A stretch of 32,000 nt of DNA, taken from Coprobacillaceae bacterium. GTDB lineage: Bacteria > Bacillota_I > Bacilli_A > Erysipelotrichales > Coprobacillaceae. Positions within the stretch are counted from its first letter, which is position 1; every line of letters starts with the position of its first letter. The DNA is taken from assembly GCA_963675515.1 (NCBI GenBank), contig OY776328.1, positions 1,470,001-1,502,000 of the forward strand. The letters are read 5' to 3'. A model generated the notes under the pieces. The model was not told the DNA's origin, ran no database searches, and saw only the letters and a list, made by a program, of their open reading frames with translations. Positions 10,815 through 29,404 of the stretch are shown piece after piece. A program made the position numbers and the translations under genes.

Positions 10815-11116
10815 GAGGTCTTCCGATAATACAAGTGCTTTCCAGTTGATTCTTACAAATTTGTCGTTTATTTTGCGATTATAAAGAACGACATTATAAA
10901 TCGAGACTGCTTTGACACCATACTGACATATATTCAATGTTTTTCACAGACTGGTTAGTAAAACGAATGCCATTTAATTCACAAATCTCATATGATATAT
11001 CAAATATTTAGCAATGTATTTAAACGTAGCCAGCTCTAACGAGGAAAATTTCAATTAATATTATCATGGAAATTGTATTAATATGCATATAAAAATTTGG
11101 AGGGGGGAATTGAATT

Positions 11117-12043
11117 ATGAGTGCAACTTTAATTATCATGGCGGCCGGAATGGGGAGCCGCTATGGTGAAGGAATCAAACAATTGGAAAAAATGGGGCCT
11201 AACGGCGAAATCCTGATGGAGTATTCGATCTATGATGCTCTTGAGGCCGGTTTTTCCAAAGTCGTCTTCATCATCCGCAAGGATCTTGAAGCGATTGTCA
11301 AGGAAACGTTGGGAGATCGCATCGCCCAAGTAACAACAGTAGAGTATGTCTTCCAGGAGCTTAGTGATTTGCCTGAAGGGTTTGTCTTGCCTGAAGAGCG
11401 CAAGAAACCTTGGGGAACGGGACAGGCAGTACTTTGCTGCAAGGATGTGGTCAAGGAACCGTTTGTGATCATCAATGCCGATGACTACTATGGCAAGACA
11501 GCCTTCAAGCTGATCTATGACTACCTGACTCAAGAACATGAAATCAAGGCGCCTATCGACCTGTGCATGGCGGGCTTCATCCTGAAAAATACCTTGTCCG
11601 ACAACGGGGCGGTGACCAGAGGGATCTGTGTCGTCGATGAAAAAAGCAAGCTTTCAAAAGTTGTGGAAACAAAAGGGATCTACAAAAACGAAGTCGGGGA
11701 AGTCATCCACAATGACAACGGAACCGATGTGGTCGCATGTCTGGACAGCCACGTATCGATGAACATGTGGGGTGGTTATCCCGATTTTATCGCAAAATTG
11801 CATCAAGGTTTTGTCGACTTTTTAGCCGACCAAACCAAGGACGAGCTGACCGGAGAATATCTGTTGCCGATCTTTGTCGACAGCCTGATCCAGGAAAATC
11901 TGGCCCAGGTCAAACTGTTGGAAACGACCGACAAATGGTTTGGCGTTACTTATGCAGCTGACAAACAAGAAGTAATCAGCCAGTTAGGTGAGTTGATCAG
12001 CGCGGGAAAATACCCAGAAAAGCTGTGGTCTGAAAAAATATAG
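11117..12043 (+). CDS. Sugar-phosphate nucleotidyltransferase (NTP_transferase fold)
   Basis: LIIMAAGMGSRYGEGIKQLEKMGPNGEILMEYSIYDA is the G-x-G-(S/T)-R nucleotidyltransferase N-terminal signature. Strong SD GGAGGGGGG upstream. Visibly GC-richer than the upstream locus. Confidence 0.75.
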   Translation: MSATLIIMAAGMGSRYGEGIKQLEKMGPNGEILMEYSIYDALEAGFSKVVFIIRKDLEAIVKETLGDRIAQVTTVEYVFQELSDLPEGFVLPEERKKPWGTGQAVLCCKDVVKEPFVIINADDYYGKTAFKLIYDYLTQEHEIKAPIDLCMAGFILKNTLSDNGAVTRGICVVDEKSKLSKVVETKGIYKNEVGEVIHNDNGTDVVACLDSHVSMNMWGGYPDFIAKLHQGFVDFLADQTKDELTGEYLLPIFVDSLIQENLAQVKLLETTDKWFGVTYAADKQEVISQLGELISAGKYPEKLWSEKI

Positions 12044-12369
12044 AGTATTATGAATCACGGTAGATTAACCTTTATTAAAATTTTTTCACTGTTTTTGTGA
12101 TTTGCTTAACATGCGTTTAGTAATTTGAAAGAAGTTGACACTTAGGGAGAGTGGCCAATTCTAACAATTTTTAAGGTTCTATATTCAATCTGTTTTGTTT
12201 TATATATTCCTTATGAAATTGCAATGTAGTAGATTGATTATTTTTAAATTAACCGTAGTTCCCGGGTAGAGTTTCTAACCACTCTGCCTTTGCATTAGAC
12301 TGAATACGCGGAAACCCTTATATTTACTTGATTTTTTAACTTTCGAACACTTCCTTTTTATGCCAAATG

Positions 12370-12403
12370 TGGTATAATGTGGTTAGAAGATATTTCTAAC
12401 CAC
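12370..12403 (+). promoter_or_regulatory. Extended -10 promoter (TGgTATAAT) followed by a perfect palindrome of the IR core motif
   Basis: TG at 12370-12371 and TATAAT at 12373-12378. GTGGTTAGAA-gatat-TTCTAACCAC spans 12379-12403, and TTCTAACCAC is the inner core of both terminal IRs. Confidence 0.5.
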
Positions 12404-12417
12404 GAAGGGAGAAAACC

Positions 12418-13923
12418 ATGTTTATCGCTTATGATATCAAAAACGGAATTGAATATGGCAAGGTTTGCACCTCGATCCGTGAGGGAAAGAAAGTCAAGAA
12501 AACGTATACTAATCTCGGACGAGTTCTTGATAAAGAGCGCGGAATCTTTCAGAACCGGTCACTTGGTGTGTTCACCTATTCCGTTGAAAACGGCTATGGC
12601 AAATCACCTGTGGATTTTGTACCCGATTCAAACGGAGACAGAGGAAAGATGAAACTTATCCTGGACTTCGGAGACAGCTTCTTCATCAATGAATATCTGA
12701 AGCAAACAGGCTTGGATAAAGTAGTAGATGAGATCGGATACGGAAATCCGGATACCCTAAAAGCGATGCTTTCCTACTATATATTGTGTAACATGGCTAA
12801 CTGCAACGCCATTGACTGGTTCGAAGGCAACTATGCGAGAATCCTGTATCCAAAGGCAAACCTTACCAGCCAGCGGATTAGTGATTTTCTCACCGCTATC
12901 GGGGATGAATACTCGGAGCGTGAATTCTTCAAGGCATATTTGGAATTCCTGTTCAGTAAAGACAACACAATCAAGGAAACCGGGATACTGATTGACAGCA
13001 CTGGACTTCCTAACGATATCCACTTTCCCTTGACGGCCATCAGTAACCATAACGGTCATATAAGCAATGAGGTAAGGCTGATCTATGTGACCCAGCAGGA
13101 TACCGGAATGCCGATATACTTCCGTTATTGTCCAGGCAACGTCATCGATACACCCACATTGGTCAGAACCATAGCTGAGTTGAAGGAAAGTGGCGTCAAC
13201 ACTAAATTTGCCATTCTTGATGCCGGATACTATTCGGATGGTAATCTCCTGCACCTATATGAGAACAAGATATCATTCGTCACAAGACTTAAGGAAAACC
13301 TGAAGCTATACAAGCACCTGGTAAACAACCATCTCGATGGCATCCAGGATAAAGAGAATTTCGTAAGCTATAACAGCCGTTATGCCTATATCAAACGGGT
13401 TGAGTGCGAACTTGTTGAAGGTTACACCGGATATGCCTACATCGGTCTTGACCTTGATCGGAAATCGAGCGAAAGCCATAAGTTGTTCCAGAAGGCAAAA
13501 GATCAAAAACTCAGTGATGAAGACGTTTACGAGAAGATGAAAAACAAAGGAATATTCATTTTGGTCTCATCGAGACGCATAGCGAAGGATAAAATCCTGC
13601 CGCTTTACTATACCCGGCAACAGGTTGAACAAATTTTCGACATCAGCAAGAACTATGCGGATCTATTGCCCTTGCGAGTGCAAAATGAGGACACCTTCAG
13701 AGGCCACCTGTTGTTAACGTTCATCGCAACTGTGTTCTGTAAGATGGTTCAAGACAAGCTGAAGGGTACCAAAATGAATCCTCAATCCTTGTTCCTGAAC
13801 CTGCGAAACCAAAAATGCAAAGTATATGATAATGCTGTAATCACTCAAGAAGCTTTCAAGAAGGCGAATGACTGTTACAAAGCATTCGGTATTGAATGCC
13901 CGGTCAGAATACCGAAAACCTGA
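12418..13923 (+). CDS. DDE transposase, IS4 superfamily (IS1634-like N-terminus)
   Basis: 501 aa. Y-(2)-R-(3)-E-(6)-K signature in LYYTRQQVEQIFDISK. Candidate catalytic Asp residues in LIDSTGLP and ILDAGYYS. SD GAAGGGAG upstream. Confidence 0.85.
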   Translation: MFIAYDIKNGIEYGKVCTSIREGKKVKKTYTNLGRVLDKERGIFQNRSLGVFTYSVENGYGKSPVDFVPDSNGDRGKMKLILDFGDSFFINEYLKQTGLDKVVDEIGYGNPDTLKAMLSYYILCNMANCNAIDWFEGNYARILYPKANLTSQRISDFLTAIGDEYSEREFFKAYLEFLFSKDNTIKETGILIDSTGLPNDIHFPLTAISNHNGHISNEVRLIYVTQQDTGMPIYFRYCPGNVIDTPTLVRTIAELKESGVNTKFAILDAGYYSDGNLLHLYENKISFVTRLKENLKLYKHLVNNHLDGIQDKENFVSYNSRYAYIKRVECELVEGYTGYAYIGLDLDRKSSESHKLFQKAKDQKLSDEDVYEKMKNKGIFILVSSRRIAKDKILPLYYTRQQVEQIFDISKNYADLLPLRVQNEDTFRGHLLLTFIATVFCKMVQDKLKGTKMNPQSLFLNLRNQKCKVYDNAVITQEAFKKANDCYKAFGIECPVRIPKT

Positions 13924-14205
13924 TATGTGGTTAGAAAAACCACCCGGGAACTAAGGATTAATTATTGATAATGACATTATTTGTGAGTTGGAAATATTCA
14001 CCCATTGCTTGTGGCTCTGTCATGCTCAGTTAATGGTGCTATTACCTTTTTAGTATATGATTAAATGGTCAAGTTATATGTCGATTCCGGAGATGAACGA
14101 CTAAAAGAGATAGAAGATAAGGTAGAATGAGGTTTAGTGGTTATTTGTGCGATATGAAACTAACCGATTCTTAAACCATACAAACACGAAAGAGGGGGAT
14201 TTATT

Positions 14206-15375
14206 TTGAAAATTACAGTCTTTGGAACAGGATATGTAGGACTTTCATTAGGGGTATTGTTGGCTCAACATAATGAGGTTGTAGCGGTTGATATTATTGA
14301 AGAAAAGGTTTGTATGCTTAATAAAAAAGTATCACCTATCAGAGATGATGAAATTGAGGAATATCTCTCTACAAAATCTTTGAATTTTAGTGCCACATTG
14401 GATAAAAAAGTAGCACTATCAGGGGCTGACTATGTTGTTATATCAACACCGACAAATTATGATGATAATAAAAATTTCTTCGATACTTCATCAGTTGAAG
14501 ATGTCATTCAAACAGTTATCAACTACAACCCTGATTGTACAATGGTAGTAAAATCAACAGTACCGGTTGGATTTATCAAAAATATGAAAGAGAAGTACGG
14601 TATTGATAACATTATGTTTTCTCCAGAGTTCTTAAGAGAGGGAAAAGCTTTGTACGACAATCTTTACCCTTCAAGAATTGTGGTAGGAGAAATCAGTGAG
14701 AGAGCAACTATATTTGCTAACTTGCTAAAAGAAGGTGCAATCAAGAAAGATATGGACGTATTGTTCACTGACAGTACCGAAGCCGAGGCAATCAAACTAT
14801 TTGCTAATACGTATCTTGCAATGAGGGTTTCCTATTTTAATGAGTTAGATACTTACGCTGAAATTAGAGGCTTGAATACCAAACAAATTATTGAAGGGAT
14901 TGGTCTTGATCCAAGAATTGGAAACCATTACAACAACCCTTCGTTTGGATACGGCGGATACTGCCTTCCAAAAGATACAAAACAATTACTGGCCAATTAT
15001 AATAATGTTCCTCAAAACATTATTCAAGCGATTGTGGATTCTAACCGTACTAGAAAAGATCATATTGCAAACATGATAATTGAGAAAAAACCTAGGATTG
15101 TCGGAATTTATCGACTGACCATGAAAGCTGGATCTGATAATTTTCGTAAGTCAGCAATCCAGGGTATTATGAAACGGATTAAGGGCGAAGGGATTGAAGT
15201 GATTATTTATGAACCGACCCTTAATGATGAAAAATTCTTCAATTCAAGAGTTGTTCAAGATCTTGATGAGTTTAAAAGACTTTCTGATTTGGTAATTGCT
15301 AATCGAAAAGAGGAAGATCTACATGATATTGAAGATAAGATCTATACTAGAGATTTGTATAGTCGTGATAGCTAA
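14206..15375 (+). CDS. ugd: UDP-glucose 6-dehydrogenase
   Basis: [29 protein letters not shown] (Rossmann GxGxxG), [24 protein letters not shown], catalytic-Cys region [11 protein letters not shown], 389 aa. TTG start 7 nt after AGAGGGGGA. Confidence 0.9.
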
Positions 15376-15569
15376 TACATTTAAAGTAAGGAATAATAAT
15401 TAAAAAGTGGATAAATTATTCATGTTTTTGATAATCATCAAGTGCATTCATTTGGAATAATATGCCGTTCCCCCCCTGTGTTAGAATAGTTGTTCATACA
15501 TTGTTTTCCAGATAACTTATTTCCGTTGGACCAAAAGAGTCTTATATTGAACAATATGTCCGCAAGTGA

Positions 15570-16250
15570 ATGTCAATAAATTTTCTTACCAATGGGGACA
15601 TTTTAATAGTTTACCAAAGTGATGGTGATGCGGACCGTTGCATTGCTGTAGACGAGTTCGGTCGGGTTGTCGATGGTGACAGCATTCTTTATGTATGCGG
15701 CAAGTATGCAAAAAGCCATGGTGAATTGGAGAACGACACTGTCGTGACGACAATCATGTCCAACCTGGGACTTTACAAGGCATTTGATGAACTGGATATC
15801 AAATATGAAAAAACCGCTGTAGGGGACAAATACGTCAATGAAAACATGGTAAACAACGGCCATGTCCTGGGCGGGGAACAATCGGGGCATATCATCTTTT
15901 CCAAGCATGCCACAACCGGTGATGGAATATTGACATCATTGAAGGTGATGGAAGCGATTATCGAATCGAAGAAGACATTGGCTCAGCTGACGGAAAACCT
16001 GGTTATCTATCCGCAGTTGATGAAAAACGTAAGGGTAAAAGACAAAAAGGCCGCGCAGGAACATCCAGCCGTGCAGGCGATCATCGCTGAAGTTGCCGAT
16101 GAATTGGGCAACAATGGTCGGGTCCTGGTCCGGGAATCGGGAACCGAACCGGTCATCAGGGTCATGGTCGAAGCGGCAACTGACAAGCTGTGTGAAAACC
16201 ATGTCAACAATATCGTACAAGTGATCAATCAATCGGGAGTGGCAATCTAG
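15570..16250 (+). pseudogene. glmM: Phosphoglucosamine mutase, C-terminal half only (5'-truncated)
   Basis: Recognisable from DGDADRCIAVDEFGRVVDGD (metal-binding loop, about nt 15618 onward) through GGEQSGHIIF and RESGTEPVIRVMVEA. The full protein is about 450 aa. Upstream sequence is AT-rich and unrelated, and the listed ATG is fortuitous. Confidence 0.8.
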
Positions 16251-16260
16251 CCACTCCTTT
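16236..16260 (+). terminator. Hairpin overlapping the glmM stop codon, short T tract
   Basis: ggagtggc-aatcta-gccactcc (perfect 8-bp stem, 16236-16257), followed only by TTT and then an A run. Confidence 0.4.
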
Positions 16261-16270
16261 AAAAAACTGT

Positions 16271-16299
16271 TTGAAAAATATCGCATTTTAGGTTAATAT
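16271..16299 (+). promoter_or_regulatory. Sigma-70-type promoter of the hxs operon
   Basis: TTGAAA (16271-16276), 17-nt spacer, TAATAT (16294-16299), about 70 nt upstream of the SD GAGGGGGA and the TTG start at 16371. Confidence 0.55.
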
Positions 16300-16487
16300 T
16301 GTAATTATTTGTACGTTTTAAATGATTTGGAATATTAAAATACAGTAATGGTTAATTGAGGGGGATTATTTTGGAGAAAGAATATAAATTCAACCGGGAA
16401 ATGTATTCCCGGGAGTCACTAATCAAGGCTGCGTACAATTTCATTGATGATTACTATATCGGGCTGGATATGGATGAAGCTTACTAT

Positions 16488-17854
16488 GATAGTGTAAAAT
16501 ATTTTGTGTAAATAGGATTTCAACTTTTAAGTAGAAAAAAGGGTGCAACCCTTGTAAAATTAGTTCGACGAAAACAATTTACGAGAGGATTACACCCATG
16601 AACTATTTTACAACAACTTTACTTAGAAGTCTAATATCAAATGATAATAATCTGCCAGCTTTTGAGCAAGTAGTCTCAGAACTTTTCCGGAGCGAATTGG
16701 AGAATGCCATCAACGATATTTTGAAGTCCGAACTTACCGTTTTTCTTGATTATGAGAAATATGACCGATCTGAGAATTCGAATTCAAGAAATGGCTATTA
16801 CAACCGCGATTACAACACTAAATATGGTGTGTTGAACCTGCGCATACCACGTGACCGTCAAGGGGACTTTGATTCACCGCTGGTCCCTAAATATCAGCGA
16901 AACGATCTAGCTACCACCAACACTGTCATCGATCTATTTAATTCAGGGATGACCAACAGCGACATTGTAAAAACTGTTGAATCAATCTACGGCAAGAAAT
17001 ACTCCAGACAGACAGTTTCCAATATTACTAAGGAAATAGTTGCCCATGTTGAAGCCTTTAAAAATCGCCCGTTAAACAAGCAATACGCAGTTGTTTATAC
17101 CGACGCTACAGTTATTCCTTTGCGGCGCGATACCGTGTCTAAAGAGGCGGTTCATATCGCTATAGGAGTGACTCTAGAGGGAACAAAGGAAATACTAGGA
17201 TATTCAATTGCGCCAACCGAATCCGCAACAACATGGCGGGAACTGTTTGAAGAGTTCAAAACACGCGGTTTGGAAGCGGTTGCGTTATTCTGTACTGACG
17301 GGCTAACCGGTGTTGAGAACGCCATTGAAGACACTTTTCCGATGGCCAAAATCCAACGTTGCCTGGTGCATGTTTCAAGAAACATTACAGCCAAAGCAAG
17401 AGTGAAAGACCGTAGTGAGATTGCACAGGATTTTAAGCGAGTTTACAATTGCGAAACTGAAAAAGCGGCGAGTGAAGAGCTTAAGGAGTTCATCACCAAA
17501 TGGGGGCAAAAATACCCAAAAGTGGCAAAATCACTTGAAGAGAATTCAAATCTATTCACTTTCTATTTGTTCCCTGAATCGGTACGCAAGAGCATATATA
17601 CAACAAACCTGATCGAAGGTTTCAATAAACAGCTCAAGCGGAAAATCAAGGCTAAAGAACAATTCCCAAATGAGGAAGCTGTGGAGAAATACATCGTTTC
17701 GCAATTTGAACAATATAACCAAAAATTCATGAACCATACCCATAAGGGATTCAAAGGAATATCTTACGAACGTTGGTTCCTGCTAGAAGAAGAATAACCA
17801 AGATGATCAGTAAGAACTAATTTTACAAATTTACACAAAAATATTGACACTACC
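16488..17854 (+). mobile_element. IS256-family insertion sequence (1367 bp) with 8-bp target duplication
   Basis: Left end GATAGTGTAAAATATTTTGTGTAAA versus the reverse complement of the right end GGTAGTGTCAATATTTTTGTGTAAA. CTTACTAT occurs at 16480-16487 and 17855-17862. Confidence 0.9.
16598..17797 (+). CDS. IS256-family (mutator-type) transposase
   Basis: 399 aa. NSRNGYYNRDYNTKYGVLNLRIPRDRQGDFDSPLVPKYQR, VVYTDATVIP, FCTDGLTGVENAI and IQRCLVHVSRN are hallmark Transposase_mut motifs. Confidence 0.95.
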   Translation: MNYFTTTLLRSLISNDNNLPAFEQVVSELFRSELENAINDILKSELTVFLDYEKYDRSENSNSRNGYYNRDYNTKYGVLNLRIPRDRQGDFDSPLVPKYQRNDLATTNTVIDLFNSGMTNSDIVKTVESIYGKKYSRQTVSNITKEIVAHVEAFKNRPLNKQYAVVYTDATVIPLRRDTVSKEAVHIAIGVTLEGTKEILGYSIAPTESATTWRELFEEFKTRGLEAVALFCTDGLTGVENAIEDTFPMAKIQRCLVHVSRNITAKARVKDRSEIAQDFKRVYNCETEKAASEELKEFITKWGQKYPKVAKSLEENSNLFTFYLFPESVRKSIYTTNLIEGFNKQLKRKIKAKEQFPNEEAVEKYIVSQFEQYNQKFMNHTHKGFKGISYERWFLLEEE

Positions 17855-18091
17855 CTTACTATCTTGTGAAGATTGTTCCTAAAGACATTGCCAACGCTGG
17901 ATTGGATGCCGAGACATTCAAAAATGAAATCCTGATCCAGGAAACCCGGGCAGTGGTGGCTAAGCGTACGGGCAATTTGCGGGAAATGATCTATTCTCGA
18001 TCATTGGCTTCGACAATAGTTTCAGGGACCACACCTGAAGCGGGTGTCCAATGCCAAATGAATGCGCAAGACATCCTGGTGGACTGGTTTG

Positions 18092-18316
18092 ATGAAAATG
18101 AATAACAGAATGGATCTGCATCGGGACTTGTTCAGTGACAAGTTGATCTCACAAGCAATCGAAGACTATGCCCTTTTGGTGGACATCACCGTCGAGCATC
18201 GGGGCAATGATGACTACGCTAGGCTGTTATTCGATAATCCCAAATATGAACTGGCTTTGACAATGGCCGAGTTTCGCAATTACCTGATTGGATTGGTGCG
18301 CCAGGATGAATATTGA
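18092..18316 (+). CDS. Second, shorter HxsD-like small protein
   Basis: MKMNNRMDLHRDLFSDKLISQAIEDYALLVDITVE...ALTMAEFRNYLIGLVRQ has the same layout as the first gene (SLIKAAYNFIDDYYIGLDM ... ETFKNEILIQETR). The start is uncertain (18092, 18098 or 18110) and overlaps the upstream stop. Confidence 0.5.
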   Translation: MKMNNRMDLHRDLFSDKLISQAIEDYALLVDITVEHRGNDDYARLLFDNPKYELALTMAEFRNYLIGLVRQDEY

Positions 18317-19325
18317 TATCATATCCCTGTTAATGACCACTGCGTTTTCTTTGACCTGCGCCTTGATGGACTTGAAAGACGGCATTGTCAGGAATGCTGT
18401 CTTCAAGTATCTTGGGATTACTTTGGCGATGGTCAACCTGATGTTGGTCTATCTGAGTGTTGGGCCCGATTGGAAACGTTATGGGCTGTTCCTGGCGGTT
18501 GGAGTCATTATCTCGCTTATATTGTTCTACACGCATATCTGGGCCGGGGCGGATTGCAAGTTCTATGCGATAGTTGTTTTGTTGTTGCCTTGGCCCGTGG
18601 TCGTAGGCCAGGTATATGGCTTAAGCAATATTGTCGTCATTGTGATCCTGGCATTCTTGTATGGATATATGTACATATTGGGCGAGTCAATCTGGCAGTA
18701 CGCCAATAACAGGAAAGACCTGTTGGTTTGGCAAACTGTCAAATCGGATTTTGGCCACTATTTTAAGACGTATTTCTTGATTGTCCTGGCAAATGAAGTT
18801 ATCAATTCGCTGACTTCACTGTTTTTCCAGGTGACGATAAGCAATATCCTGCTGGTTGTTATCGATTATGCTCTTGTTGTTTGGGCGAACAAGTGGCGCT
18901 TGCTTGAAAACAAAATGATCGTGGCGACAATCATTATTGGCAACATTGCAATGCAGCTTTCGGGACTGATAAGCATATTGACCTTAATCAATCTCATGAT
19001 CTGGGCTGTGGTGATCTTGGCTCTGGTACTCAAGAATTTTGCAAGAAGTTTCAACTATAGGCAAATCGACCTTGGCGCTTTGGAAAAAGGGATGATCCTT
19101 TCAACCATGTCTTCAATCCAACTGGCAAGAAAAAGGTACTCGCGCTTCAAGAAGATTTCCGATGAATCATTGAACTCCCGTCTTGATGAACAGGACATTT
19201 TAGTTTTGCACCAGCTGGCATCTTCTTTAAAAACGCCTCAGGAGGTCTGTATTGTCAAGAAAATACCGTTCATCCTTTTCATTTATCTTGGCATCGCTTC
19301 TATCCTGATCATGGGGGCACTTTAA
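18306..19325 (+). CDS. Peptidase A24 (prepilin/preflagellin peptidase)-like polytopic membrane protein with a large internal or C-terminal expansion
   Basis: Candidate catalytic Asp motifs ALMDLKDGIVRN and IWAGADCKFYAIV (GxGDxK-like). C-terminal KKIPFILFIYLG resembles the IPFGP motif. About 339 aa versus about 160-250 for minimal A24 enzymes. The ATG at 18306 overlaps the upstream stop. Confidence 0.6.
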   Translation: MNIDIISLLMTTAFSLTCALMDLKDGIVRNAVFKYLGITLAMVNLMLVYLSVGPDWKRYGLFLAVGVIISLILFYTHIWAGADCKFYAIVVLLLPWPVVVGQVYGLSNIVVIVILAFLYGYMYILGESIWQYANNRKDLLVWQTVKSDFGHYFKTYFLIVLANEVINSLTSLFFQVTISNILLVVIDYALVVWANKWRLLENKMIVATIIIGNIAMQLSGLISILTLINLMIWAVVILALVLKNFARSFNYRQIDLGALEKGMILSTMSSIQLARKRYSRFKKISDESLNSRLDEQDILVLHQLASSLKTPQEVCIVKKIPFILFIYLGIASILIMGAL

Positions 19326-19326
19326 G

Positions 19327-20427
19327 ATGCTAAAAGTAAGTAATTATTTATATGGTACCCGGATGGCTTCGGTGGCCAAAAGCGAAGCGGTATTGAAGCG
19401 AATGATCGATTTGAATTATGATGTGTGCTATGTGGAGCGATCAAGTCTATGTTTTTATCCTGATGGCCTGAGGGTTCCGCTTGTTGATGATGAATATGAT
19501 GCGTTCCATGATCTTCCCGACTACAGCATCCTGGAATTCCGGGAAGGCAGGGCATATCTAAGCCATGATGCGAGTTCGCTCGACAACGCGATCTTCATAA
19601 CCAATCGGTGCAATTCCAACTGCATCATGTGTCCCACAAGCAATCATGTGCGTCGGCAAAGCGAGATTGCCGACATTGCCAATTTGCTCAAGTTGTGCCA
19701 CCAGATTCCCAGTGATGCTGCCCATCTGACGATCACCGGGGGCGAGCCTTTCCTATTGAAAGATGACCTTTTTGTCCTGCTGCAATACCTCAAGATCCAT
19801 AAGGGCAATATTGAATATCTCCTGCTGAGTAATGGTCGGGCTTTGGGGGATTACAATTATTTCACGAGATTCAAGGCCACTGTTCCGGAACATCTGCTGA
19901 TTGGCATCCCGTTGCACGGTTATGATGCAGCGACCCATGATCGTATAACCCGCAGCTCGGGCAGCATCAACCAGACTTATCAGGGTCTGAAATACCTGGC
20001 TTCGACTTGCATCAAGGTGGAATTGCGGATAGTAGTCAGTCGATTGAACATCGATTATATCGATGCCATCGCCAATCTGGTAATCAGGGAATTGGCTCAT
20101 GTCCAGGTCGTAACCTTCATCGGTTTGGAAATGCTGGGGAATGCCCGTCTAAACTTCGACCAGGTCTGGGTTGATTACCGCAGCTCCTTTGAAGCAATCA
20201 CAGGAGCCATCGACAACTTGATCGCTTCAGGCATCAATGTCGTTATCTACAATTATCCCTTGTGTTGCGTCCCGGAAAAGTATTGGTCGATTTGCCATCG
20301 CAGCATTTCGCCCGAGAAGGTGCGCCACTTGGATGAATGTCTCACATGCACTAAAAAGGACTACTGCGGAGGGATGTTTATGGGAACCTACAGACTGATG
20401 GAAGGAAAGGTAAAGGCAATAAGATGA
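19327..20427 (+). CDS. hxsC: Radical SAM protein, HxsC-type maturase
   Basis: ITNRCNSNCIMCP (CxxxCxxC), ITGGEPF, and a C-terminal Cys cluster CCVPEKYWSIC...CLTCTKKDYCGG. There is a 95-aa N-terminal extension before the cluster. The start lies 1 nt after the upstream stop. The C-versus-B assignment follows gene order and size, from memory. Confidence 0.75.
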   Translation: MLKVSNYLYGTRMASVAKSEAVLKRMIDLNYDVCYVERSSLCFYPDGLRVPLVDDEYDAFHDLPDYSILEFREGRAYLSHDASSLDNAIFITNRCNSNCIMCPTSNHVRRQSEIADIANLLKLCHQIPSDAAHLTITGGEPFLLKDDLFVLLQYLKIHKGNIEYLLLSNGRALGDYNYFTRFKATVPEHLLIGIPLHGYDAATHDRITRSSGSINQTYQGLKYLASTCIKVELRIVVSRLNIDYIDAIANLVIRELAHVQVVTFIGLEMLGNARLNFDQVWVDYRSSFEAITGAIDNLIASGINVVIYNYPLCCVPEKYWSICHRSISPEKVRHLDECLTCTKKDYCGGMFMGTYRLMEGKVKAIR

Positions 20428-21809
20428 TCGCACCATTCAATTTCAAGCAATTTGGCAACAAGATAATCATGACCAATGACCTGGGCCGTTATATGTTTGT
20501 CGAAAAGAAAGAATTCCAGGACTTGCTAAATGACAGGATGGATACCGGATCACAGTTGTACCGGGAACTTGAAGACAACTTCTTCGTATTCAACAGCTCC
20601 ATGGAGTATTTTGTGGAACGGATGAAACCCGAGCTGCGGACTGCCAAGAGCTATCTGTTTACAGCCACCAGCCTCCATATCTTTGTAGTCACCAACTACT
20701 GCAACTCCAATTGCGTCTATTGCCAGGCCAACAGCAATTGTTCCAATTCCAAGAAGGTTATGGACAGGGACATCGCCCGCAAGGCCGTTGACTTCGCCCT
20801 GCAGTCGCCTCAAAAACAGCTTACCTTTGAATTCCAGGGTGGGGAACCCTTAAGCAATTTCCCCATCATCAAGGAGATAGTGGAATATGCTTCCTCAAGG
20901 AAAAAAGACAAAGTCATCGCTTATACGATAGTATCCAACTTGTCGCTGCTCAATCAGGAGATGGTTGATTTTTTCAAGGAACATTGCATCTCGATTTCCA
21001 CCTCCCTGGACGGTCAGGCGGAGCTTCACAATCAAAACCGTCCCCTGGCTAACGGTGATGATTCTTTCGCCATCCAGAAAATGGCAATGGCCAGGCTCAA
21101 AGCCAACAAGATCGGTTATGGGGCCATCCAGACAACGACCCGGACAAGTCTTAAGTATGCCCGGGAGATAGTCGACCAGTATCTGGAGTTTGGTCTTTCC
21201 AATCTGTTTGTCCGGCCACTCACCCCGCTTGGCTGTGCTGCTTCAAGCTGGGATGATATCGGTTATACCGTTAAAGAATTCATTGATTTTTACAAGGACA
21301 CCATGCTGTATATTTTAAAATTGAATCAGCAGGGGACAATCATCAAGGAAGGACATGCCAGCATATTCCTGCAAAAGATAATCAACGGCTACGGTGTCAA
21401 CTACATGGAACTTCGTTCCCCTTGTGGGGCGGGTATCGGGCAGTTGGCATATTATTATGACGGCAACATCTTCACCTGCGATGAGGGCAGGATGCTCCAT
21501 GAAATGCATGACAGTTCGTTCAAGTTGGGAAATGTGGCGGATATGGATTATGACAGTCTGATGAATTCGAAATTATGCAAGACAGTCTGCAAGCACAGCA
21601 TCATCGAAAGCATTCCCAAATGCGCTGATTGTGTCTATATGCCATATTGCGGCACTTGCCCGGTAGTCAATTATGCCCTGGAGGGCGATATTATCCCCAA
21701 GTCGGTTGCCAATTACCGTTGCGAACTGTATGGCGGGATGCTCGAGACGATATTCGAACTGATCCAAAACGAAGACTACCTGAACATATTCAAGGAATGG
21801 GTGAAATGA
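20424..21809 (+). CDS. hxsB: Radical SAM/SPASM-domain protein, HxsB-type maturase
   Basis: VTNYCNSNCVYCQA, FQGGEPL, and a SPASM-like C-terminus (SPCGAG...DGNIFTC ... CADCVYMPYCGTCPV). ATGA overlap with hxsC at 20424-20427. Confidence 0.8.
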   Translation: MIAPFNFKQFGNKIIMTNDLGRYMFVEKKEFQDLLNDRMDTGSQLYRELEDNFFVFNSSMEYFVERMKPELRTAKSYLFTATSLHIFVVTNYCNSNCVYCQANSNCSNSKKVMDRDIARKAVDFALQSPQKQLTFEFQGGEPLSNFPIIKEIVEYASSRKKDKVIAYTIVSNLSLLNQEMVDFFKEHCISISTSLDGQAELHNQNRPLANGDDSFAIQKMAMARLKANKIGYGAIQTTTRTSLKYAREIVDQYLEFGLSNLFVRPLTPLGCAASSWDDIGYTVKEFIDFYKDTMLYILKLNQQGTIIKEGHASIFLQKIINGYGVNYMELRSPCGAGIGQLAYYYDGNIFTCDEGRMLHEMHDSSFKLGNVADMDYDSLMNSKLCKTVCKHSIIESIPKCADCVYMPYCGTCPVVNYALEGDIIPKSVANYRCELYGGMLETIFELIQNEDYLNIFKEWVK

Positions 21810-22744
21810 TGAACAAGATAAAAAAGATATTATCAAAAAAACTGTTAATAATTACTGTAATATTGTTTTCATTTGCCGGCATCGCAGTTGCGTATGGCGA
21901 AGACGAGTATGGCATCATCGAGAATTTCGACCTCTACCGGGAAAACTACGAGACTGGCCAACTCGAGACGGTGAATGGTATCTATTATGGCTCTATTGCC
22001 GAATTGAAGAGCGTTTCACATAGTGGCGAGTTTACCTTTGATGTGGGCGACAGCTATTCCGGCGAGTGGGACAATAAAACAATCGAAGGCTGGGGGACAT
22101 ACTCGTATGAAACCTTGGGTAGCTACACTGGTTATTTTGAAAACAATCTTCGAAGCGGCGAGGGTACCTTCAAATGGAGTGACGGGGGTGAGTATGTCGG
22201 CTACTGGGAGCTCGATAGATTATCCGGTACGGGGACTTACACTGCTCCCGAAAACTATGTCTTGAAGGGAACATTCAGTGGAAATAAATTTATCGCGGGA
22301 ACTGTCAAGACAACAATCGATGACACAGCCTATACTTATTATCTGGAAGACGGTACTTTTATCAATGCGATCGACATTGACTACTCCAACGGAAGCAATT
22401 ATCATGGCGACTATAAAGACGGTAAAATAAACGGTACGGGCATCATGAATTACAGCAACGGTGACCAATATAGTGGCCAATTCGGTTCCGGTCTGCGTGC
22501 AGTGATCGGAACGTACACCTGGAAAAACGGAGCCACGTACTCAGGAGATTGGAGCAACGACAAGATGAACGGCAAAGGCGTCTATACCTATCCCACAAAT
22601 GCCGCCGGAAAGTCGGTGTCTGGCAACTTCGTCAACAACAATATTACCGGAAGCAGCACTTACATCGACGATGATGGAAAAAAATTCGAAGTAATCTGGA
22701 GTAATGGCGTTTGCAAGCAGGTGAAAGGAGCAACCAATGATTGA
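21806..22744 (+). CDS. Secreted or anchored MORN-repeat protein
   Basis: Sec-type N-terminus MMNKIKKILSKKLLIITVILFSFAGIAVA/YG. At least 6 MORN-like units (YSGEWDNKTIEGWGTYSY, YTGYFENNLRSGEGTFKW, YVGYWELDRLSGTGTYT, YHGDYKDGKINGTGIMNY, YSGQFGSGLRAVIGTYTW, YSGDWSNDKMNGKGVYTY). ATGA overlap with hxsB at 21806-21809. The ORF-track start at 21629 is an upstream read-through. Confidence 0.85.
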   Translation: MMNKIKKILSKKLLIITVILFSFAGIAVAYGEDEYGIIENFDLYRENYETGQLETVNGIYYGSIAELKSVSHSGEFTFDVGDSYSGEWDNKTIEGWGTYSYETLGSYTGYFENNLRSGEGTFKWSDGGEYVGYWELDRLSGTGTYTAPENYVLKGTFSGNKFIAGTVKTTIDDTAYTYYLEDGTFINAIDIDYSNGSNYHGDYKDGKINGTGIMNYSNGDQYSGQFGSGLRAVIGTYTWKNGATYSGDWSNDKMNGKGVYTYPTNAAGKSVSGNFVNNNITGSSTYIDDDGKKFEVIWSNGVCKQVKGATND

Positions 22745-23273
22745 TAATTTTCCAACCATAAAAAAATCAATTGAGGATTTGATCAACGATGAAGAGGGTA
22801 ATATCCCAAGAGGCAAACTGATTACCATCGGTTCGACCCTGATGCTCATGGGGATGATCATGGGAATTGATGTCTATGCGACCCACGGTTCGCATAAGTC
22901 GCACTCGTCCCATTCATCTACCTCATATGTAAGATCGCATTCATCTACCTCATATGTAAGATCGCATTCATCGCACGGATCCCACACGTCACATGCTTCG
23001 CATGCAAGCAGCCAGACATCGGATGCTAGTACCCATGCGTCTCATTCCAATACTCACTCATCAGCACCGGCTCATGTAAATTCTAATACTACCCCAACCC
23101 ATATAAGCAATGCCGGTGGAAGTGTACCAGGGACCAGTGAGATCCCTGCACTTCAAACTCCGGTTCCTGATAATTTCGGTACGAATATACCAAACATTTC
23201 AACAGCGGTATCGTTCGAATTGGAAGTGGGGAAAACAATTGTTCCGGATTTCAAATTGGATAATGGCAAGTAA
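22737..23273 (+). CDS. hxsA: His-Xaa-Ser repeat protein (HxsA-type putative substrate)
   Basis: THGSHKSHSSHSSTSYVRSHSSTSYVRSHSSHGSHTSHASHAS...THASHSNTHSS contains about 12 H-x-S triplets. There is no Cys in the whole 178 aa. A hydrophilic 27-aa N-terminus precedes one hydrophobic segment. There is an 8-nt overlap with the MORN gene. Confidence 0.85.
   Translation: MIDNFPTIKKSIEDLINDEEGNIPRGKLITIGSTLMLMGMIMGIDVYATHGSHKSHSSHSSTSYVRSHSSTSYVRSHSSHGSHTSHASHASSQTSDASTHASHSNTHSSAPAHVNSNTTPTHISNAGGSVPGTSEIPALQTPVPDNFGTNIPNISTAVSFELEVGKTIVPDFKLDNGK
22911..22972 (+). repeat. Perfect 27-bp tandem duplication (2.3 copies) inside hxsA
   Basis: cattcatctacctcatatgtaagatcg occurs at 22911-22937 and 22938-22964, then cattcatc. 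It encodes HSSTSYVRS twice. Confidence 0.95.
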
Positions 23274-23558
23274 TCAAATAAGGATCGGCTACAAAATAGC
23301 ATCAAAGTTTATCCCTGAATCCAGCGCGATAATTGTGATTGGCAGCGCCTAAAAAAAGGGTTTTTAGAGCTGTTTACGGATATATATGTTTATCGTACGC
23401 ACCGATATTGAAGCGGTAAATGATTGTCCCATGGTTAAAACTGGTTTGGTAATAGGAATATTATGTTGGGGCATCAATAATATGTATTTCTGATATACAC
23501 TTTGGAGTATTTAGCAAGATAAAAAAGATCTACAGTTATAGTTAAAAAAGTATATATA

Positions 23559-23567
23559 TGTTATAAT
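23559..23567 (+). promoter_or_regulatory. Extended -10 promoter (TGtTATAAT) in the AT-rich spacer
   Basis: TG at 23559-23560 and TATAAT at 23562-23567. The -35 is weak (TAGTTA at 17-nt spacing). Confidence 0.4.
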
Positions 23568-23660
23568 ATTGATTATATTTATTGATTATCCTACGAAGTG
23601 TAATACAAGATTACTTTGTATGAATAAGATAAGAAGGGGAGATTGTTATCGTGCTCAATG

Positions 23661-23699
23661 GAGTCAACTTAAGAAATTCCTTAAGTCGGCTCTTTTTTT
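23661..23699 (+). terminator. Rho-independent terminator
   Basis: gagtcaacttaag-aaattc-cttaagtcggctc forms a 13-bp stem with one mismatch and one G-U pair, followed by 7 T (23693-23699). Confidence 0.7.
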
Positions 23700-23942
23700 G
23701 ATGTTTTTGACAACTGTTCGATATTTGATTTGAATTTGTAGTTAAGATTATAAGTAATATTTGCTGATATTTAGCCATTATAGTGATATAATGTAGTTAA
23801 GAAAAGAGGCGATATTGTAGCTAGTCACATTATTTGGACACCGGTTCTTCAAATTATTTGAAGCTGATTTGTATCTTATTTTAGATGTTCTTCGAATTAT
23901 TTGGTGGGGATATTCGCTTTATTTGAATAATGATGTTTATGA

Positions 23943-23970
23943 AAAATAATCGCCGCTAGGCGATTATTTT
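23943..23970 (-). terminator. Perfect 12-bp hairpin overlapping the stop codon of the last transposon gene (potentially bidirectional)
   Basis: aaaataatcgcc-gcta-ggcgattatttt. A/T tracts flank it on both sides, and the minus-strand TAG stop lies in the loop. Confidence 0.55.
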
Positions 23971-24264
23971 CTTTTCCCATAATATCTTGATTGCTTGAGA
24001 GATCGCCTCGCTGGTAATCTGATCAGTTTCCCTTAACAGGTTGGAGCGATTCCAAAACACATCGTTGAAATACGACAATTCCAATCCTATTTTCATTAAC
24101 GGAACGCAAATCCAGTTTGTCAGTCTTGATTTCCCAATCAGTACGTTTACATGATTCCCATTGTATTTCAATGAAAACTCACACTGGCTATCGGTGATAC
24201 TGATTAACTCAAGATTATTCTGCCAGACAATTCCATCATATTCGCATTTAAATGAGATCATCAT
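23956..24264 (-). CDS. Hypothetical protein (102 aa), last gene of the transposon operon
   Basis: 4-nt overlap with the ATPase gene stop. No recognisable motif. Confidence 0.45.
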   Translation of the reverse strand: MMISFKCEYDGIVWQNNLELISITDSQCEFSLKYNGNHVNVLIGKSRLTNWICVPLMKIGLELSYFNDVFWNRSNLLRETDQITSEAISQAIKILWEKKIIA

Positions 24265-25064
24265 ATATTGACCTCGTTAATTGTCTGCAGCGCAATATCG
24301 CTATCGATAACTTCGACACCTTTTATTGCACCGATAAACATCGCCCGGTCACATATCCTGTCGATTTCTCGGCACACACCGTTGGCGCCATTGATTATTG
24401 CTTCCAATGCGTTGTTGTCGAATACTTCCTGGATTGTCTTGGCCAGGAGCAACTTGTCCTTGATGTATGCATGTCCTTCCAGCTTATCTAATTGACCGAT
24501 ACTGTAGTTGACAATGATTCTTTGCGTTAATGAGTCATGAGCCCCAAACCGTAAATGTCGAATTATCGAAGGTAGACCAACCATCAAAATTACCGCATGG
24601 TTCTTGGAATCCATATCGAAGTTAAATATCATCTTTAAATCATTGAGTATCGCCGTACTCATATGGTTACACTCATCAAAGATGAATACCGGAGTGATCC
24701 GCTTTTCATAAACCAATTGGTAAATGGCGGTCTGGATATCCTTGAACAAGTCGTTTTTCCGATATCGAGGAATCAAATCAAGGGAATCCGCTAGTTGCAT
24801 ATAGAACTCCTTGACCGATAAAGTCGACATGGACAGGTAAATTATCTTGTAAGTGACCTTGGGCAGGTTGCTTACGTAGTTCCTGATCATGGTTGTCTTG
24901 CCACGTCCTGGTTCCCCAAGAATCATCCCGAATCCCTTTATTTCAAACAAACTGTCGAGCCTTATTTTCAGCTCTTTGTATTCCTTCGTTTCGATAAAAT
25001 TATTCTTATTGTTTTTAATGAATGGGTTGAACTCTAACCCATATCTGGTCCAGTATTTTTCCAT
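24261..25064 (-). CDS. AAA+ ATPase, TniB/ExeA/Tn552-p271-like transposition helper
   Basis: YWTRYGLEFNPF (ExeA-like N-terminus), Walker A GEPGRGKTT, Walker B PVFIFDECNHM. 267 aa, abutting the transposase gene with no gap. Confidence 0.85.
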   Translation of the reverse strand: MEKYWTRYGLEFNPFIKNNKNNFIETKEYKELKIRLDSLFEIKGFGMILGEPGRGKTTMIRNYVSNLPKVTYKIIYLSMSTLSVKEFYMQLADSLDLIPRYRKNDLFKDIQTAIYQLVYEKRITPVFIFDECNHMSTAILNDLKMIFNFDMDSKNHAVILMVGLPSIIRHLRFGAHDSLTQRIIVNYSIGQLDKLEGHAYIKDKLLLAKTIQEVFDNNALEAIINGANGVCREIDRICDRAMFIGAIKGVEVIDSDIALQTINEVNI

Positions 25065-26312
25065 CTAATCTTCTCCTGCGCATAACTTTGGTTTCACTCT
25101 AACTGCTGTTGCATTCGCATGTTTATCCAATAATTTGATTGGTTCTAATTCTCCTGTGTGTTTATTAACTACATAAACCTGGGACAAATCTGGAGCATAT
25201 CTAAAAACATGGCGCTCATTTGAATATATGTACTCAATTTCGTATTCTTTGTTTTCAATCTTGACCACCGAATCCACACTGACCTTTCTTTCCACTTCAA
25301 ACAGGAAGGTGTTATCGATGGACTCGTCGTTCAATCGCTTGATCAGGTTGCTTTCATGATAGAACCTTTCGCTAGGGGTCAAGCCATTCAGTGAAGAATG
25401 GACCCTTGTATTGTATTTGTGAATAAATTTGTTTAGATCGGTATTCAATTTCTCTAAATCATTGGTATAGTCAATCACATTTAATTGAGCAAAAAACTGT
25501 TTTTTTACAGTTGAGAAAAAGCGCTCAATCTTCGCCTTTCCAGTTGGTTCGAACGCTTTACAATAGCTAATTGTAGAATTTATTCTTGCGGCAGTCATCT
25601 GAATCTGGGAACTCTTATAGTTCGAACCATTATCAAACCGGAACATTTCTGGGACACCATACTTGGTAACTGCGCTTTTCATGGCATCCATTAGATTCAC
25701 CGTATTATCATTAAGATATATCCCCATATGGACTATCATTCTTGAAGCATCGTCAATCAAGGCAATCATATATGTCCGGCGCTTTTTACCGTTGATGTAA
25801 ATATATGGCCCAACTGAACTGTCGCCAGCCCACATCGAATTGATATGGCGGGCTTCATAACGCCTCATGTCCTTCTTGTTTGAAATACGCAGCTCAGCTT
25901 TGATTTCATTAACACAACGGTTGACTGTCGATAGGGAAACATCAGTCTTCTTTATTAATCCATCTTCAATCAGTTTTTCATAGATTACAGTTGCCGGCAA
26001 CCTAGGATAGGTTGTCTTATAGTGCTTTATGACCTCAATGACGTCGTCATCGAGTCTTCGCGATCTCCCGGCATCACTTCTCCCTTGTGGAATCAGGCCA
26101 TCAAATCCTTTAGTCTCATAAGCCTTGATCCATCTTCGGATGGTTGTATCGGACACGGTGAAATCACTACTGTCAAAATCCTTATAAATCTTTTTGGTTG
26201 CCTGCTCGATAGCCTGGGATTTTGTCCAAGATTGATCATAATTTCCGGTTATTATGTCATGAATTATCCTATGGCGCAATAAAGTAACAAATTCCTGTTC
26301 TTTTCTATTCAT
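25065..26312 (-). CDS. DDE transposase (rve/Mu-transposase-like; TnsB/TniA/Tn552-p480 class)
   Basis: Triad context WAGDSS, FDNGSNY and GKAKIERFF, with an N-terminal HTH region. The ORF opens at 26354, but GGGAGG plus 6 nt favours the ATG at 26312 (MNRKEQEF). Confidence 0.85.
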   Translation of the reverse strand: MNRKEQEFVTLLRHRIIHDIITGNYDQSWTKSQAIEQATKKIYKDFDSSDFTVSDTTIRRWIKAYETKGFDGLIPQGRSDAGRSRRLDDDVIEVIKHYKTTYPRLPATVIYEKLIEDGLIKKTDVSLSTVNRCVNEIKAELRISNKKDMRRYEARHINSMWAGDSSVGPYIYINGKKRRTYMIALIDDASRMIVHMGIYLNDNTVNLMDAMKSAVTKYGVPEMFRFDNGSNYKSSQIQMTAARINSTISYCKAFEPTGKAKIERFFSTVKKQFFAQLNVIDYTNDLEKLNTDLNKFIHKYNTRVHSSLNGLTPSERFYHESNLIKRLNDESIDNTFLFEVERKVSVDSVVKIENKEYEIEYIYSNERHVFRYAPDLSQVYVVNKHTGELEPIKLLDKHANATAVRVKPKLCAGED

Positions 26313-26360
26313 ATTGTTCCTCCCATCAGTACTATATAGGAGTTGATTGAACAAGTTAAC

Positions 26361-26915
26361 TTAGGCTATGTGGTTGAAGGTATATAGGATATTTGGGGTC
26401 ATTTTTACCTGCATGAACTGCACCAAATAATTTGAAAAACAGGAAATCACCAGGGTATTGAGATTACCCAAAGAGATGCGAAAAGTATTTAACCTCTCTT
26501 GCCAATGGTTTCGATATCTAAGTATGACATTATAAATCTCGCATTCACAAATCTCAGGATGACAATCAAGAATTAGTTTCAGACCGTTTTTACTACTTTG
26601 CTTTCTAATTATTTCAACCTGAACAGCCAATGGGATACTGGTATATGGAACGAGGTCGGAAAGTAAAATGGCATGGGTAACCCCACAATCCTTACATTTC
26701 AAGCGCATTATCCGCAACCTAAAAATTCCAAAAGGTAGCTTGACCTTTCGGAAGTAATAGCCATGAATGATGTGATTGCCGCCGCATGAGTTGACACAAC
26801 CGATGGAGTAACGGTTAATATCATTTACAGCTGCATCGTAAAAATCCTGTAGCTTTGATTCAGAATCGATTTCGAGTAATTTACTCTTGATTTTATCATT
26901 GTGATAAGTTATCAT
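26361..26915 (-). CDS. Cys-rich (putative zinc-binding) protein, first gene of the transposon operon
   Basis: 184 aa. GCVNSCGGNH ... KCKDCGVTH gives a CxxxC...CxxC arrangement. Family not recognised with certainty. Confidence 0.5.
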   Translation of the reverse strand: MITYHNDKIKSKLLEIDSESKLQDFYDAAVNDINRYSIGCVNSCGGNHIIHGYYFRKVKLPFGIFRLRIMRLKCKDCGVTHAILLSDLVPYTSIPLAVQVEIIRKQSSKNGLKLILDCHPEICECEIYNVILRYRNHWQERLNTFRISLGNLNTLVISCFSNYLVQFMQVKMTPNILYTFNHIA

Positions 26916-27008
26916 AATTTTGTTTTATGGGGAATGAGAGAAGCTACTTGGCGGTGGGGTCTCTCATTTTTCTTTCTATGGAATATTTATCAACAAGATA
27001 TCAAAAAA

Positions 27009-27067
27009 AGAGGTCGGGTTCAACTAATTTGAAGAAAAAACATTCAAATTAGTTGGCAACGGCCTCT
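27009..27067. repeat. Long imperfect inverted repeat at the transposon right end
   Basis: agaggtcgggttcaactaatttgaa (27009-27033), 9-nt spacer, ttcaaattagttggcaacggcctct (27043-27067). The arms contain the subterminal repeat motif in opposite orientations. An A7 run lies just upstream. Confidence 0.8.
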
Positions 27068-27128
27068 ATTTAATTTGCACAAAAACCTAGAAATATTTAC
27101 CATATAAATCGACTAGCTACACGATATT

Positions 27129-28799: not shown

Positions 28800-29075
28800 T
28801 CAAGAATACACTATCATTATAACATGAATATCGCAATTTTAAAAAAACGCTAAAATTCTATGGGGGATTATGCGCTTTTTTTCATGTGAAGATTTAAACT
28901 AAACTTGAATTAAGCGTCAGAGATTTATATTTAAGCTGCATATAGATATAAAAAGAGCCAACTAGGAAAAAGGTCCTAAAGTTGACTCCATTGGGGGAGT
29001 GGATAGGTTACAATAAATTAGACAAGATTATAAGGACATGATAAAATCTTGTTAAATTTGTGGAGGATATTCAAA

Positions 29076-29369: not shown

Positions 29370-29404
29370 TCTTTGCAAATCAACACAAATACTCTATCAG
29401 CGCT

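Follow-up and report, generated by a model that had tools for sequence, protein, structure and literature searches.

We have analyzed a gene for a predicted membrane aspartyl peptidase of the A24 type that a Coprobacillaceae bacterium (assembly GCA_963675515.1, contig OY776328.1, positions 1,470,001 to 1,502,000) carries among genes for a His-Xaa-Ser (HXS) repeat protein and its radical S-adenosylmethionine (radical SAM) maturases. These 32,000 nucleotides, the whole stretch of DNA that was analysed, are referred to as the window, and all coordinates not tied to another locus are positions within it. Motifs, profile matches and predicted topology place the protein in the A24 (prepilin/preflagellin, GxGD-type) superfamily of membrane aspartyl proteases as a distinct subfamily of ~340 amino acids (aa), and the comparison of gene orders makes it a constant part of the 'type 3' HXS cassettes of the Bacillota. 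It is probably catalytically active. The reading that we favour, and to which we give an even chance, is that of a GxGD protease dedicated to the leader or signal-anchor of the effector precursor HxsA3, which it would cut at the cytoplasmic membrane face. It rests on association and topology, from which we infer the activity, the substrate, the place of cleavage and the order of events.

The peptidase and its family

The gene and the predicted layout of its product are as follows.

18306..19325, + strand: A24-type (GxGD-like) membrane aspartyl peptidase gene (A24L), an intact open reading frame (ORF) of 339 codons (339 aa)
A24 core: transmembrane (TM) helices TM1-5, with D22 and D83
Residues ~141-249: four extra TM helices
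Residues ~250-320: cytoplasmic domain
Residues 322-338: terminal KKIPF helix

An earlier interpretation made without database searches (the sequence-only reading) had described a protein of about 339 aa with two aspartate motifs and a C-terminal IPF, and this description is borne out. The motif MDLKDGIVRN occupies residues 21-30, with D22 as candidate catalytic aspartate; WAGADCKF occupies residues 79-86, with D83 as the other candidate; and the C-terminal KKIPF motif ends in IPF at residues 320-322. Among 76 distinct full-length homologues derived from related loci, between which identity falls to ~20%, the residues D22, N30, D83, K85, P95, E287 and P321 are 100% invariant. Two of the conserved positions lie in the cytoplasmic domain, namely E287 and the near-invariant R292. 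The position at -3 of the second aspartate is Ala rather than Gly (A80, invariant in a 26-sequence alignment), and residue 82, at -1 of D83, is Gly in 75 of the 76 sequences, the window protein being the only one with Ala there. The same AGAD form was seen in the two nearest relatives of the window protein, P0002 (76% identity) and P0003 (60% identity).

The Pfam family PF01478 (Peptidase_A24) matches the window protein over residues 11-124 with an expected value (E) of 7.1e-5, covering 101 of the 104 profile positions. It is matched at E<=0.01 by 23 of 26 homologues, with a best value of 8.9e-10, and seven of the ten homologues scanned singly lie above the gathering score of 26.5 bits, with 29.6 to 38.6 bits (the highest for P0017). 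The matching homologues can be aligned with the window protein over their full length. One homologue carries the NCBI name 'prepilin peptidase', and no NCBIfam model matched the peptidase in a scan of seven family members.

The sequence-only reading had also called attention to an expansion in size, with extra helices and a soluble segment. The expansion is real: it comprises the four additional TM helices and a domain of 70 aa, and the sequence comparisons make a length of ~340 aa a trait of the whole family rather than an oddity of the window. A search of 5.8 billion proteins yielded 30 full-length relatives of 313-348 aa, and when a profile was run against 1.84 billion cluster representatives, 427 matched at E<=1e-30, the best 150 of which are all full-length and 322-352 aa long, except for two fragments. 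An AlphaFold2 (AF2) model (pLDDT 78, pTM 0.65) contains some ten TM helices, and its residues 250-320 form a small alpha/beta domain. Counts of Lys plus Arg over the 76 sequences are 2.4-12 for the loops by D22 and after TM5, TM7 and TM9, and at most 0.8 for the remaining loops; by this positive-inside pattern the loops 23-31, 131-152, 195-204 and 248-320 are cytoplasmic. Sequence statistics and the AF2 helix layout thus predict that both aspartates and the 70-aa domain, which is basic, are cytoplasmic and that the N- and C-termini are outside. Known A24 enzymes have their active-site aspartates on the cytoplasmic side and cut there (PMC4985597, PMC4307647), and the predicted orientation agrees with theirs. 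Searched alone, the cytoplasmic domain gave nothing significant against PDB (best match Spt6, E 0.25) or against Pfam (all E >0.006).

The sole PDB sequence match to the peptidase was the archaeal FlaK (3S0X, E 0.1), in which D22 and the GGD motif align with the catalytic positions; a second, non-significant stretch pairs the KKIPF helix with the last FlaK helix. FlaK has six TM helices and a four-stranded solvent-exposed domain (PMC4985597). Like FlaK/PibD (MEROPS A24B), the peptidase has one Asp at the cytoplasmic end of TM1 and another in a G-G/A-D that starts a later helix, lacks an N-terminal methyltransferase domain, and has a solvent-exposed domain besides its helical bundle. It differs from them in having about ten TM helices rather than six, an A-G-G/A-D motif with no Gly at -3, a 70-aa cytoplasmic domain of no detectable similarity and a candidate substrate that lacks a class III motif, and in that its genomic partner is a radical SAM anti-phage cassette and not a locus for archaella or pili. 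With the bacterial prepilin peptidases (PilD, GspO, ComC, TadV/CpaA; A24A) it shares the PF01478 family and an active site towards the cytoplasm. In a hhalign comparison of the family with Escherichia coli GspO only the first Asp motif was aligned, with low probability; in this weak alignment D-x5-I-x-N/D corresponds to 'IDFRTQLLPD' of GspO. Unlike the A24A enzymes, the peptidase has no methyltransferase or Zn-binding N-domain, has the four extra TM helices and the cytoplasmic insert, has no pilin, pseudopilin or secretion genes nearby, and has a candidate substrate whose leader is long, acidic and without Gly at -1 or Glu at +5.

Association with HXS cassettes

The peptidase gene is followed and preceded by the following genes, all on the same strand and closely packed or overlapping. 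The gene hxsD, at the head of the cassette, is interrupted in this genome and is described in the last section.

18092..18316, + strand: hxsD_rel, a small HxsD-like protein (NF038315, 47.2 bits against a cutoff of 41; start inferred from homologues)
19327..20427, + strand: hxsC, radical SAM maturase (TIGR03977, 286.3 bits against a cutoff of 267.9)
20424..21809, + strand: hxsB, radical SAM/SPASM maturase (TIGR03978, 526.7 bits against a cutoff of 370)
21806..22744, + strand: MORN-repeat protein, anchored in the membrane by one N-terminal segment (Pfam MORN, E 2e-23; start inferred from an ATGA overlap with the hxsB stop)
22737..23273, + strand: hxsA3, His-Xaa-Ser repeat effector precursor (NF038309, 96.3 bits against a cutoff of 65)

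The placement of the gene within a radical SAM operon, as first read from the sequence, is confirmed, as is the absence of pilus, Tad and flagellin genes from the window. In related loci, only Hxs-type genes were found immediately around the peptidase by phmmer and hidden Markov model (HMM) annotation, which included no scan aimed at pilin genes.

The survey of co-occurrence across Hxs loci that had been proposed along with the sequence-only reading was carried out from two directions. A scan of one genome per GTDB species with a profile of the peptidase identified 55 loci, and in all 55 the gene lies in an Hxs cassette. The hosts are mainly Lachnospiraceae, Oscillospiraceae, Acutalibacteraceae and Ruminococcaceae, and also include Floccifex, Mitsuokella and one metagenome-assembled genome of a spirochaete. 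Wherever the contig is long enough, phmmer and HMM annotation gives the gene order hxsD-hxsD_rel-peptidase-hxsC-hxsB-(MORN)-hxsA3; both the peptidase and HxsC are present in 47/47 genome loci that span hxsD to hxsB. Independently, a metagenome scan was seeded with the N-terminus of HxsA3. It produced 27 loci spanning hxsD to hxsB, of which 24 have the peptidase; the other three also lack HxsC, and their effector passes the HxsA4 model. Five further loci, found by exact-protein look-up, have the same gene order, often followed by XpaC-TelA-TelA(-rhomboid), with conjugation or defence-like genes flanking.

The stop of the peptidase gene and the start of hxsC overlap or are no more than 6 nt apart in most loci, which suggests co-translation; in the window hxsC starts 2 nt past the stop. 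In most related loci hxsD_rel was detected immediately upstream of the peptidase gene, and the MORN gene is present in 43 of 47 genome cassettes and 16 of 25 metagenome cassettes. In a rearranged cassette (L071) the peptidase is kept, and hxsA3 follows it directly. The radical SAM enzymes gave only generic viperin-like matches with PADLOC, which has no model for the seven-gene variant, and a tblastn search of plasmids gave no match.

Type 3 cassettes carry two HxsD-like genes each, for HxsD (~120 aa) and HxsD_rel (~70 aa), the second of which may work with HxsB or with the peptidase. The HxsA4-type loci (L113-L116, L110, L112) are arranged as hxsD-hxsD_rel-hxsB-hxsA4, with neither hxsC nor a peptidase gene between; they have the basic leader KKFPQIKKNIKAFLTSEEGKITKK, and their HxsA4 has a large extra C-terminal domain behind a Cys-containing linker. 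A second radical SAM gene lies downstream in L116.

HxsA3 as candidate substrate, and alternative roles

The classical HXS system consists of four genes, HxsD-B-C-A, blocks the entry of phage DNA, and is 99.7% confined to the Pseudomonadota (Li et al., Nat Commun 2026, PMC13128918). Its effector HxsA depends on radical SAM maturation. It gains +8 Da within an SHRSS motif, is cleaved at the N-terminus and is exported; this cleavage is essential, is not ordinary signal-peptide removal, and needs HxsB, HxsC and HxsD. The same work left open the responsible protease and the mode of cleavage and export, suspected additional host factors, and makes no mention of a peptidase or of Gram-positive HXS variants (PMC13128918). 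The window resembles this system in having HxsB, HxsC, HxsD (rejoined in silico) and an HxS-repeat effector with an N-terminal export signal, all above the NCBIfam cutoffs. It differs in the order D-D_rel-peptidase-C-B-MORN-A3 and in its Bacillota hosts, anti-phage activity having been shown only for the E. coli-type system. The effector is also of another type, HxsA3, with a conserved leader of ~25 aa before the hydrophobic segment, and relatives of the cassette often add XpaC-TelA-TelA.

HxsA3 of the window is laid out as follows.

26-aa acidic leader, up to 'IPRG'
17-aa hydrophobic segment
VYA|T site
HxS repeats

The leader, given as 27 hydrophilic residues in the sequence-only reading, thus has 26 up to 'IPRG'. 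In a survey of ~90 distinct HxsA3 N-termini (90, 91 or 92 sequences, depending on the test) the leader is conserved as F-P-x-I-K-K-S-I-E-D-F-x-x-[DE]-E-E-G-N-I-[PT]-R-[NS]-K, and is followed by a hydrophobic segment of ~17 residues that contains a near-invariant Gly (88/90) and then Ser/Thr. After this segment comes [DE]-[VA]-[FY]-A, and then at once the first H-x-S repeats. In two homologues (L071 5367-6044 and L093 7989-8684) the C-terminal ends resemble, by eye, cell-wall-binding (W/Y/G-rich) or dockerin (DxNxDGxxDxxD) repeats. Such repeats are consistent with an extracytoplasmic effector, in parallel to the peptidoglycan-binding domain of proteobacterial HxsA.

The strict two-way synteny makes HxsA3 the most plausible substrate of the peptidase. 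Among the proteins detected in every complete cassette it alone has a single N-in hydrophobic segment behind a conserved cytoplasmic leader, and the overall acidic character of this leader, as against the basic cytoplasmic domain of the peptidase, was counted in its favour. On the favoured reading, HxsA3 would be made with a cytoplasmic leader of ~25 aa followed by the N-in segment, and HxsB, HxsC and the two HxsD-like proteins would bind to this leader, the HxS repeats being modified by them in the cytoplasm. After this radical SAM modification the peptidase would cut the leader or signal-anchor at or near the inner membrane surface, a cut that would couple maturation to export, and signal peptidase I (SPase I) would probably free the HxS-repeat part outside, at a conserved AxA-like site.

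A number of results weigh against this reading. With 23.6 bits the window protein itself falls just under the Pfam gathering score, and A24 membership is shown at the level of its family. The second motif is AGGD in the family and AGAD in the window protein, not the canonical GxGD, with Ala at -1 of the second Asp in the latter; Ala at this position is a common functional variant in archaea, 'GxHyD' (PMC4307647). Foldseek found no significant structure with the peptidase model, FlaK, which had the highest Foldseek probability, ranking tenth (E 2.9, TM-score 0.50 on the target). On the side of the substrate, the proposal that HxsA resembles a class III signal (basic residue, Gly at -1, hydrophobic stretch) does not hold: of 90 HxsA3 sequences, 50 have Asn at the position in question, 22 have Ser and 11 have Lys, against just 5 with Gly, and a FlaFind-type class III motif with a hydrophobic 14-mer occurs in just 2 of 92 N-termini. 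A place of cleavage by the peptidase is not assignable from residue frequencies or from the FlaFind motif. An SPase-I-like (-3,-1) V/A-x-A site precedes the first His in 84 of 91 sequences, so that N-terminal processing could occur without the peptidase, as in the case of cleavage only at VYA|T that the sequence-only reading had itself named as refuting its proposal. The leader motif FPxIKK..EEG and the Gly of the hydrophobic segment are also found in HxsA4 proteins, whose loci have no peptidase; the motif is thus not peptidase-specific, and the conservation of both features is probably owed to recognition by HxsB/HxsD rather than to a protease. The site 'EEG|N' had been considered as specific for the peptidase and was dropped, since HxsA4 proteins without a peptidase keep 'SEEG'. 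Finally, the joint loss of the peptidase and HxsC from HxsA4-type loci could point to HxsC, not HxsA, as the partner. What had been suggested as a dedicated leader peptidase for HxsA is thus supported as a dedicated component of the cassette by synteny, while the argument from a class III signal falls.

Of the other explanations the main rival is a clean-up of the signal peptide peptidase (SPP) kind, and a scaffold or export role or a different substrate are lesser ones. GxGD proteases of the SPP type take N-in (type II-oriented) substrates, and the orientation of HxsA3 would suit them. In such a scheme SPase I would first free the HxS-repeat domain at AxA, and the peptidase would then cleave the leftover of ~48 aa, leader plus hydrophobic segment, either freeing the conserved leader with any HxsB, HxsC or HxsD bound to it or simply clearing the membrane of the remnant. 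The SPase-I-like site, the helix-breaking Gly with Ser/Thr inside the hydrophobic segment and the near absence of class III motifs would all be accounted for. That Gly is, however, shared with HxsA4 proteins from loci without the peptidase, the known cuts of A24 enzymes lie at the cytoplasmic surface of the membrane and not deep in the bilayer, and bacteria already own general proteases that clear signal peptides, so that a dedicated one may not be needed. We regard this scheme as unlikely. SPP and presenilin (A22) have in common with the peptidase the two-Asp GxGD chemistry, and the action of SPP on type II signal-peptide remnants fits the layout of HxsA3; the resemblance is a mechanistic one, and no sequence match of the peptidase to A22 families was found.

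Rather more doubtful is a non-proteolytic or chiefly structural role. The A24 fold would then serve as a scaffold, with the cytoplasmic domain of the enlarged protein holding HxsC (and HxsB/HxsD) at the membrane, or the protein would assist in exporting the modified effector. Its gene almost always abuts or overlaps hxsC and is missing exactly where HxsC is missing, its four extra helices and conserved cytoplasmic domain are unrelated to known A24 parts, and its second motif departs from GxGD; but the invariance of both aspartates together with N30, K85 and P95 across such diverged sequences is what an active enzyme would be expected to show. A little less probable again is that the peptidase processes another membrane protein, be it one of the host or the cassette's own type II protein with MORN repeats. 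The MORN-like proteins begin with a short basic tail and a single hydrophobic anchor and are encoded in most cassettes, yet their N-termini have no conserved motif, and no MORN-like gene was detected in 4 of 47 genome and 9 of 25 metagenome cassettes with the peptidase, hxsB and hxsA3 being adjacent in several; as an obligatory substrate the MORN protein was rejected on account of these absences. No pilin-like genes are available in the window as another source of substrates. A chance placement beside the Hxs genes of a normal type IV prepilin peptidase, serving pili, competence or type II secretion, might be suspected from the NCBI name of one homologue and from the Pfam match. We attach next to no probability to this reading, given the strict synteny in more than 70 independent loci of several Bacillota families, the distinct architecture of ~340 aa and the lack of pilus genes in the window, and the synteny survey effectively refutes it.

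Returning to the dedicated protease, the closest precedent is EpeP, an intramembrane M50 metalloprotease of the epipeptide operon of Bacillus subtilis (radical SAM enzyme EpeE), which has a presumed role in cleaving the modified product and exporting it (PMC10885120). It too is a membrane-embedded protease encoded beside a radical SAM maturase; it is a zinc metalloprotease rather than an aspartyl protease of the GxGD type, its product is a small peptide rather than a repeat protein of ~150 aa, and there is no sequence relationship. A 2023 review of leader proteases for peptides made on ribosomes and modified post-translationally (RiPPs) has no aspartyl or A24 entries (PMC10885120). Our searches of the full-text literature on HxsA3, and on prepilin peptidases with radical SAM or RiPP systems, returned nothing on a pairing of A24 with HXS, and we found neither the enlarged A24 subfamily nor the Bacillota HXS variant of seven genes that includes a membrane protease described in the searchable literature or in curated family libraries.

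A widespread Bacillota version of HXS (at least ~430 clusters at 50% identity) with a membrane aspartyl protease of its own offers a concrete and mutable candidate for the processing of the effector. A previously unrecognised cytoplasmic domain is added to the A24 family, and the seven-gene variant, with its second HxsD-like protein and its MORN membrane protein, is unmodelled in current catalogues of defence systems. In its strongest form the proposal is that this subfamily of ~340 aa is the HxsA3 leader protease, the first enzyme of the prepilin-peptidase type to act on a radical SAM-modified anti-phage effector, whose novel cytoplasmic domain would read a leader that is not of class III and keep export gated until modification is done; we put its chances somewhat short of even. 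If it is true, the type of enzyme behind the essential N-terminal processing in HXS defence would be identified, the A24 family would reach beyond pilin-like substrates to one without a class III signal, and the question would arise whether host A24 peptidases serve the four-gene proteobacterial systems in a like manner.

State of the cassette and its neighbourhood

The peptidase gene is intact in this genome and hxsD is not. The latter is split by an insertion sequence (IS), as follows.

16374..16487, + strand: 5' fragment of hxsD, ~38 N-terminal codons (phmmer match to HxsD of L001, E 3e-11)
16488..17854, + strand: IS256-family element of 1367 bp within hxsD (transposase 16598-17797, NF033543, 387 bits)
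17855..18105, + strand: 3' fragment of hxsD, matching only positions 52-87 of the 90-position TIGR03976

The element has imperfect terminal inverted repeats of ~26 bp, and 8 bp of target sequence, CTTACTAT, are perfectly duplicated on its two sides (16480-16487 and 17855-17862). When it is removed in silico the fragments are in frame and give an HxsD of 117 aa, which scores 63.3 bits against a TIGR03976 cutoff of 50; no intact HxsD is present in the window, and only the rejoined ORF passes this model. The insertion looks recent. In the classical system HxsD is essential (PMC13128918), and the single HxsD there binds HxsC. With hxsD split, and with the insertion lying between the likely promoter and the genes downstream, the cassette is probably not active in this genome, notwithstanding the intact peptidase gene.

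The cassette has a GC content of ~45-46% against a background of ~32%. Besides polysaccharide-biosynthesis genes, the rest of the window contains five transposase or IS genes, and the following elements lie around the cassette.

12418-13923: IS1634
24261-26354, minus strand: IS21-like istA/istB
27834-28799: DDE_Tnp_1 transposase
29405-30184: IS3-like integrase

The location of the cassette in an IS-rich island (window positions 11000-31000) of a ~32% GC genome suggests horizontal acquisition. A flanking gene of housekeeping type has its nearest named relatives in Thomasclavelia ramosa and allied Erysipelotrichales, and the host is accordingly a monoderm member of the Bacillota. Just upstream of the hxsD start, an ORF for a phosphoglucomutase/phosphoglucosamine mutase (15570-16250) has domains III-IV only (226 aa) and is apparently a truncated remnant.

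Among related cassettes, XpaC (Halogen_Hydrol)-TelA-TelA, sometimes with a rhomboid protease, follows hxsA3 in L001-L004, L018, L023, L032, L074 and L083, and is absent from the window. Precomputed Pfam hits place TerB_N/TerB_C, a BrxC/BrxD-like ATPase and a helicase beside the cassette of L005 (50-5990), and a type IV secretion system coupling protein and a metallo-beta-lactamase-fold protein beside that of L001 (769-4333). Upstream of the cassette of L071 (1982-4160) are an ATPase-like ORF and a partner ORF that are defence-like by eye only. Such defence-like and mobile neighbours fit a defence island or the cargo of an integrative and conjugative element.

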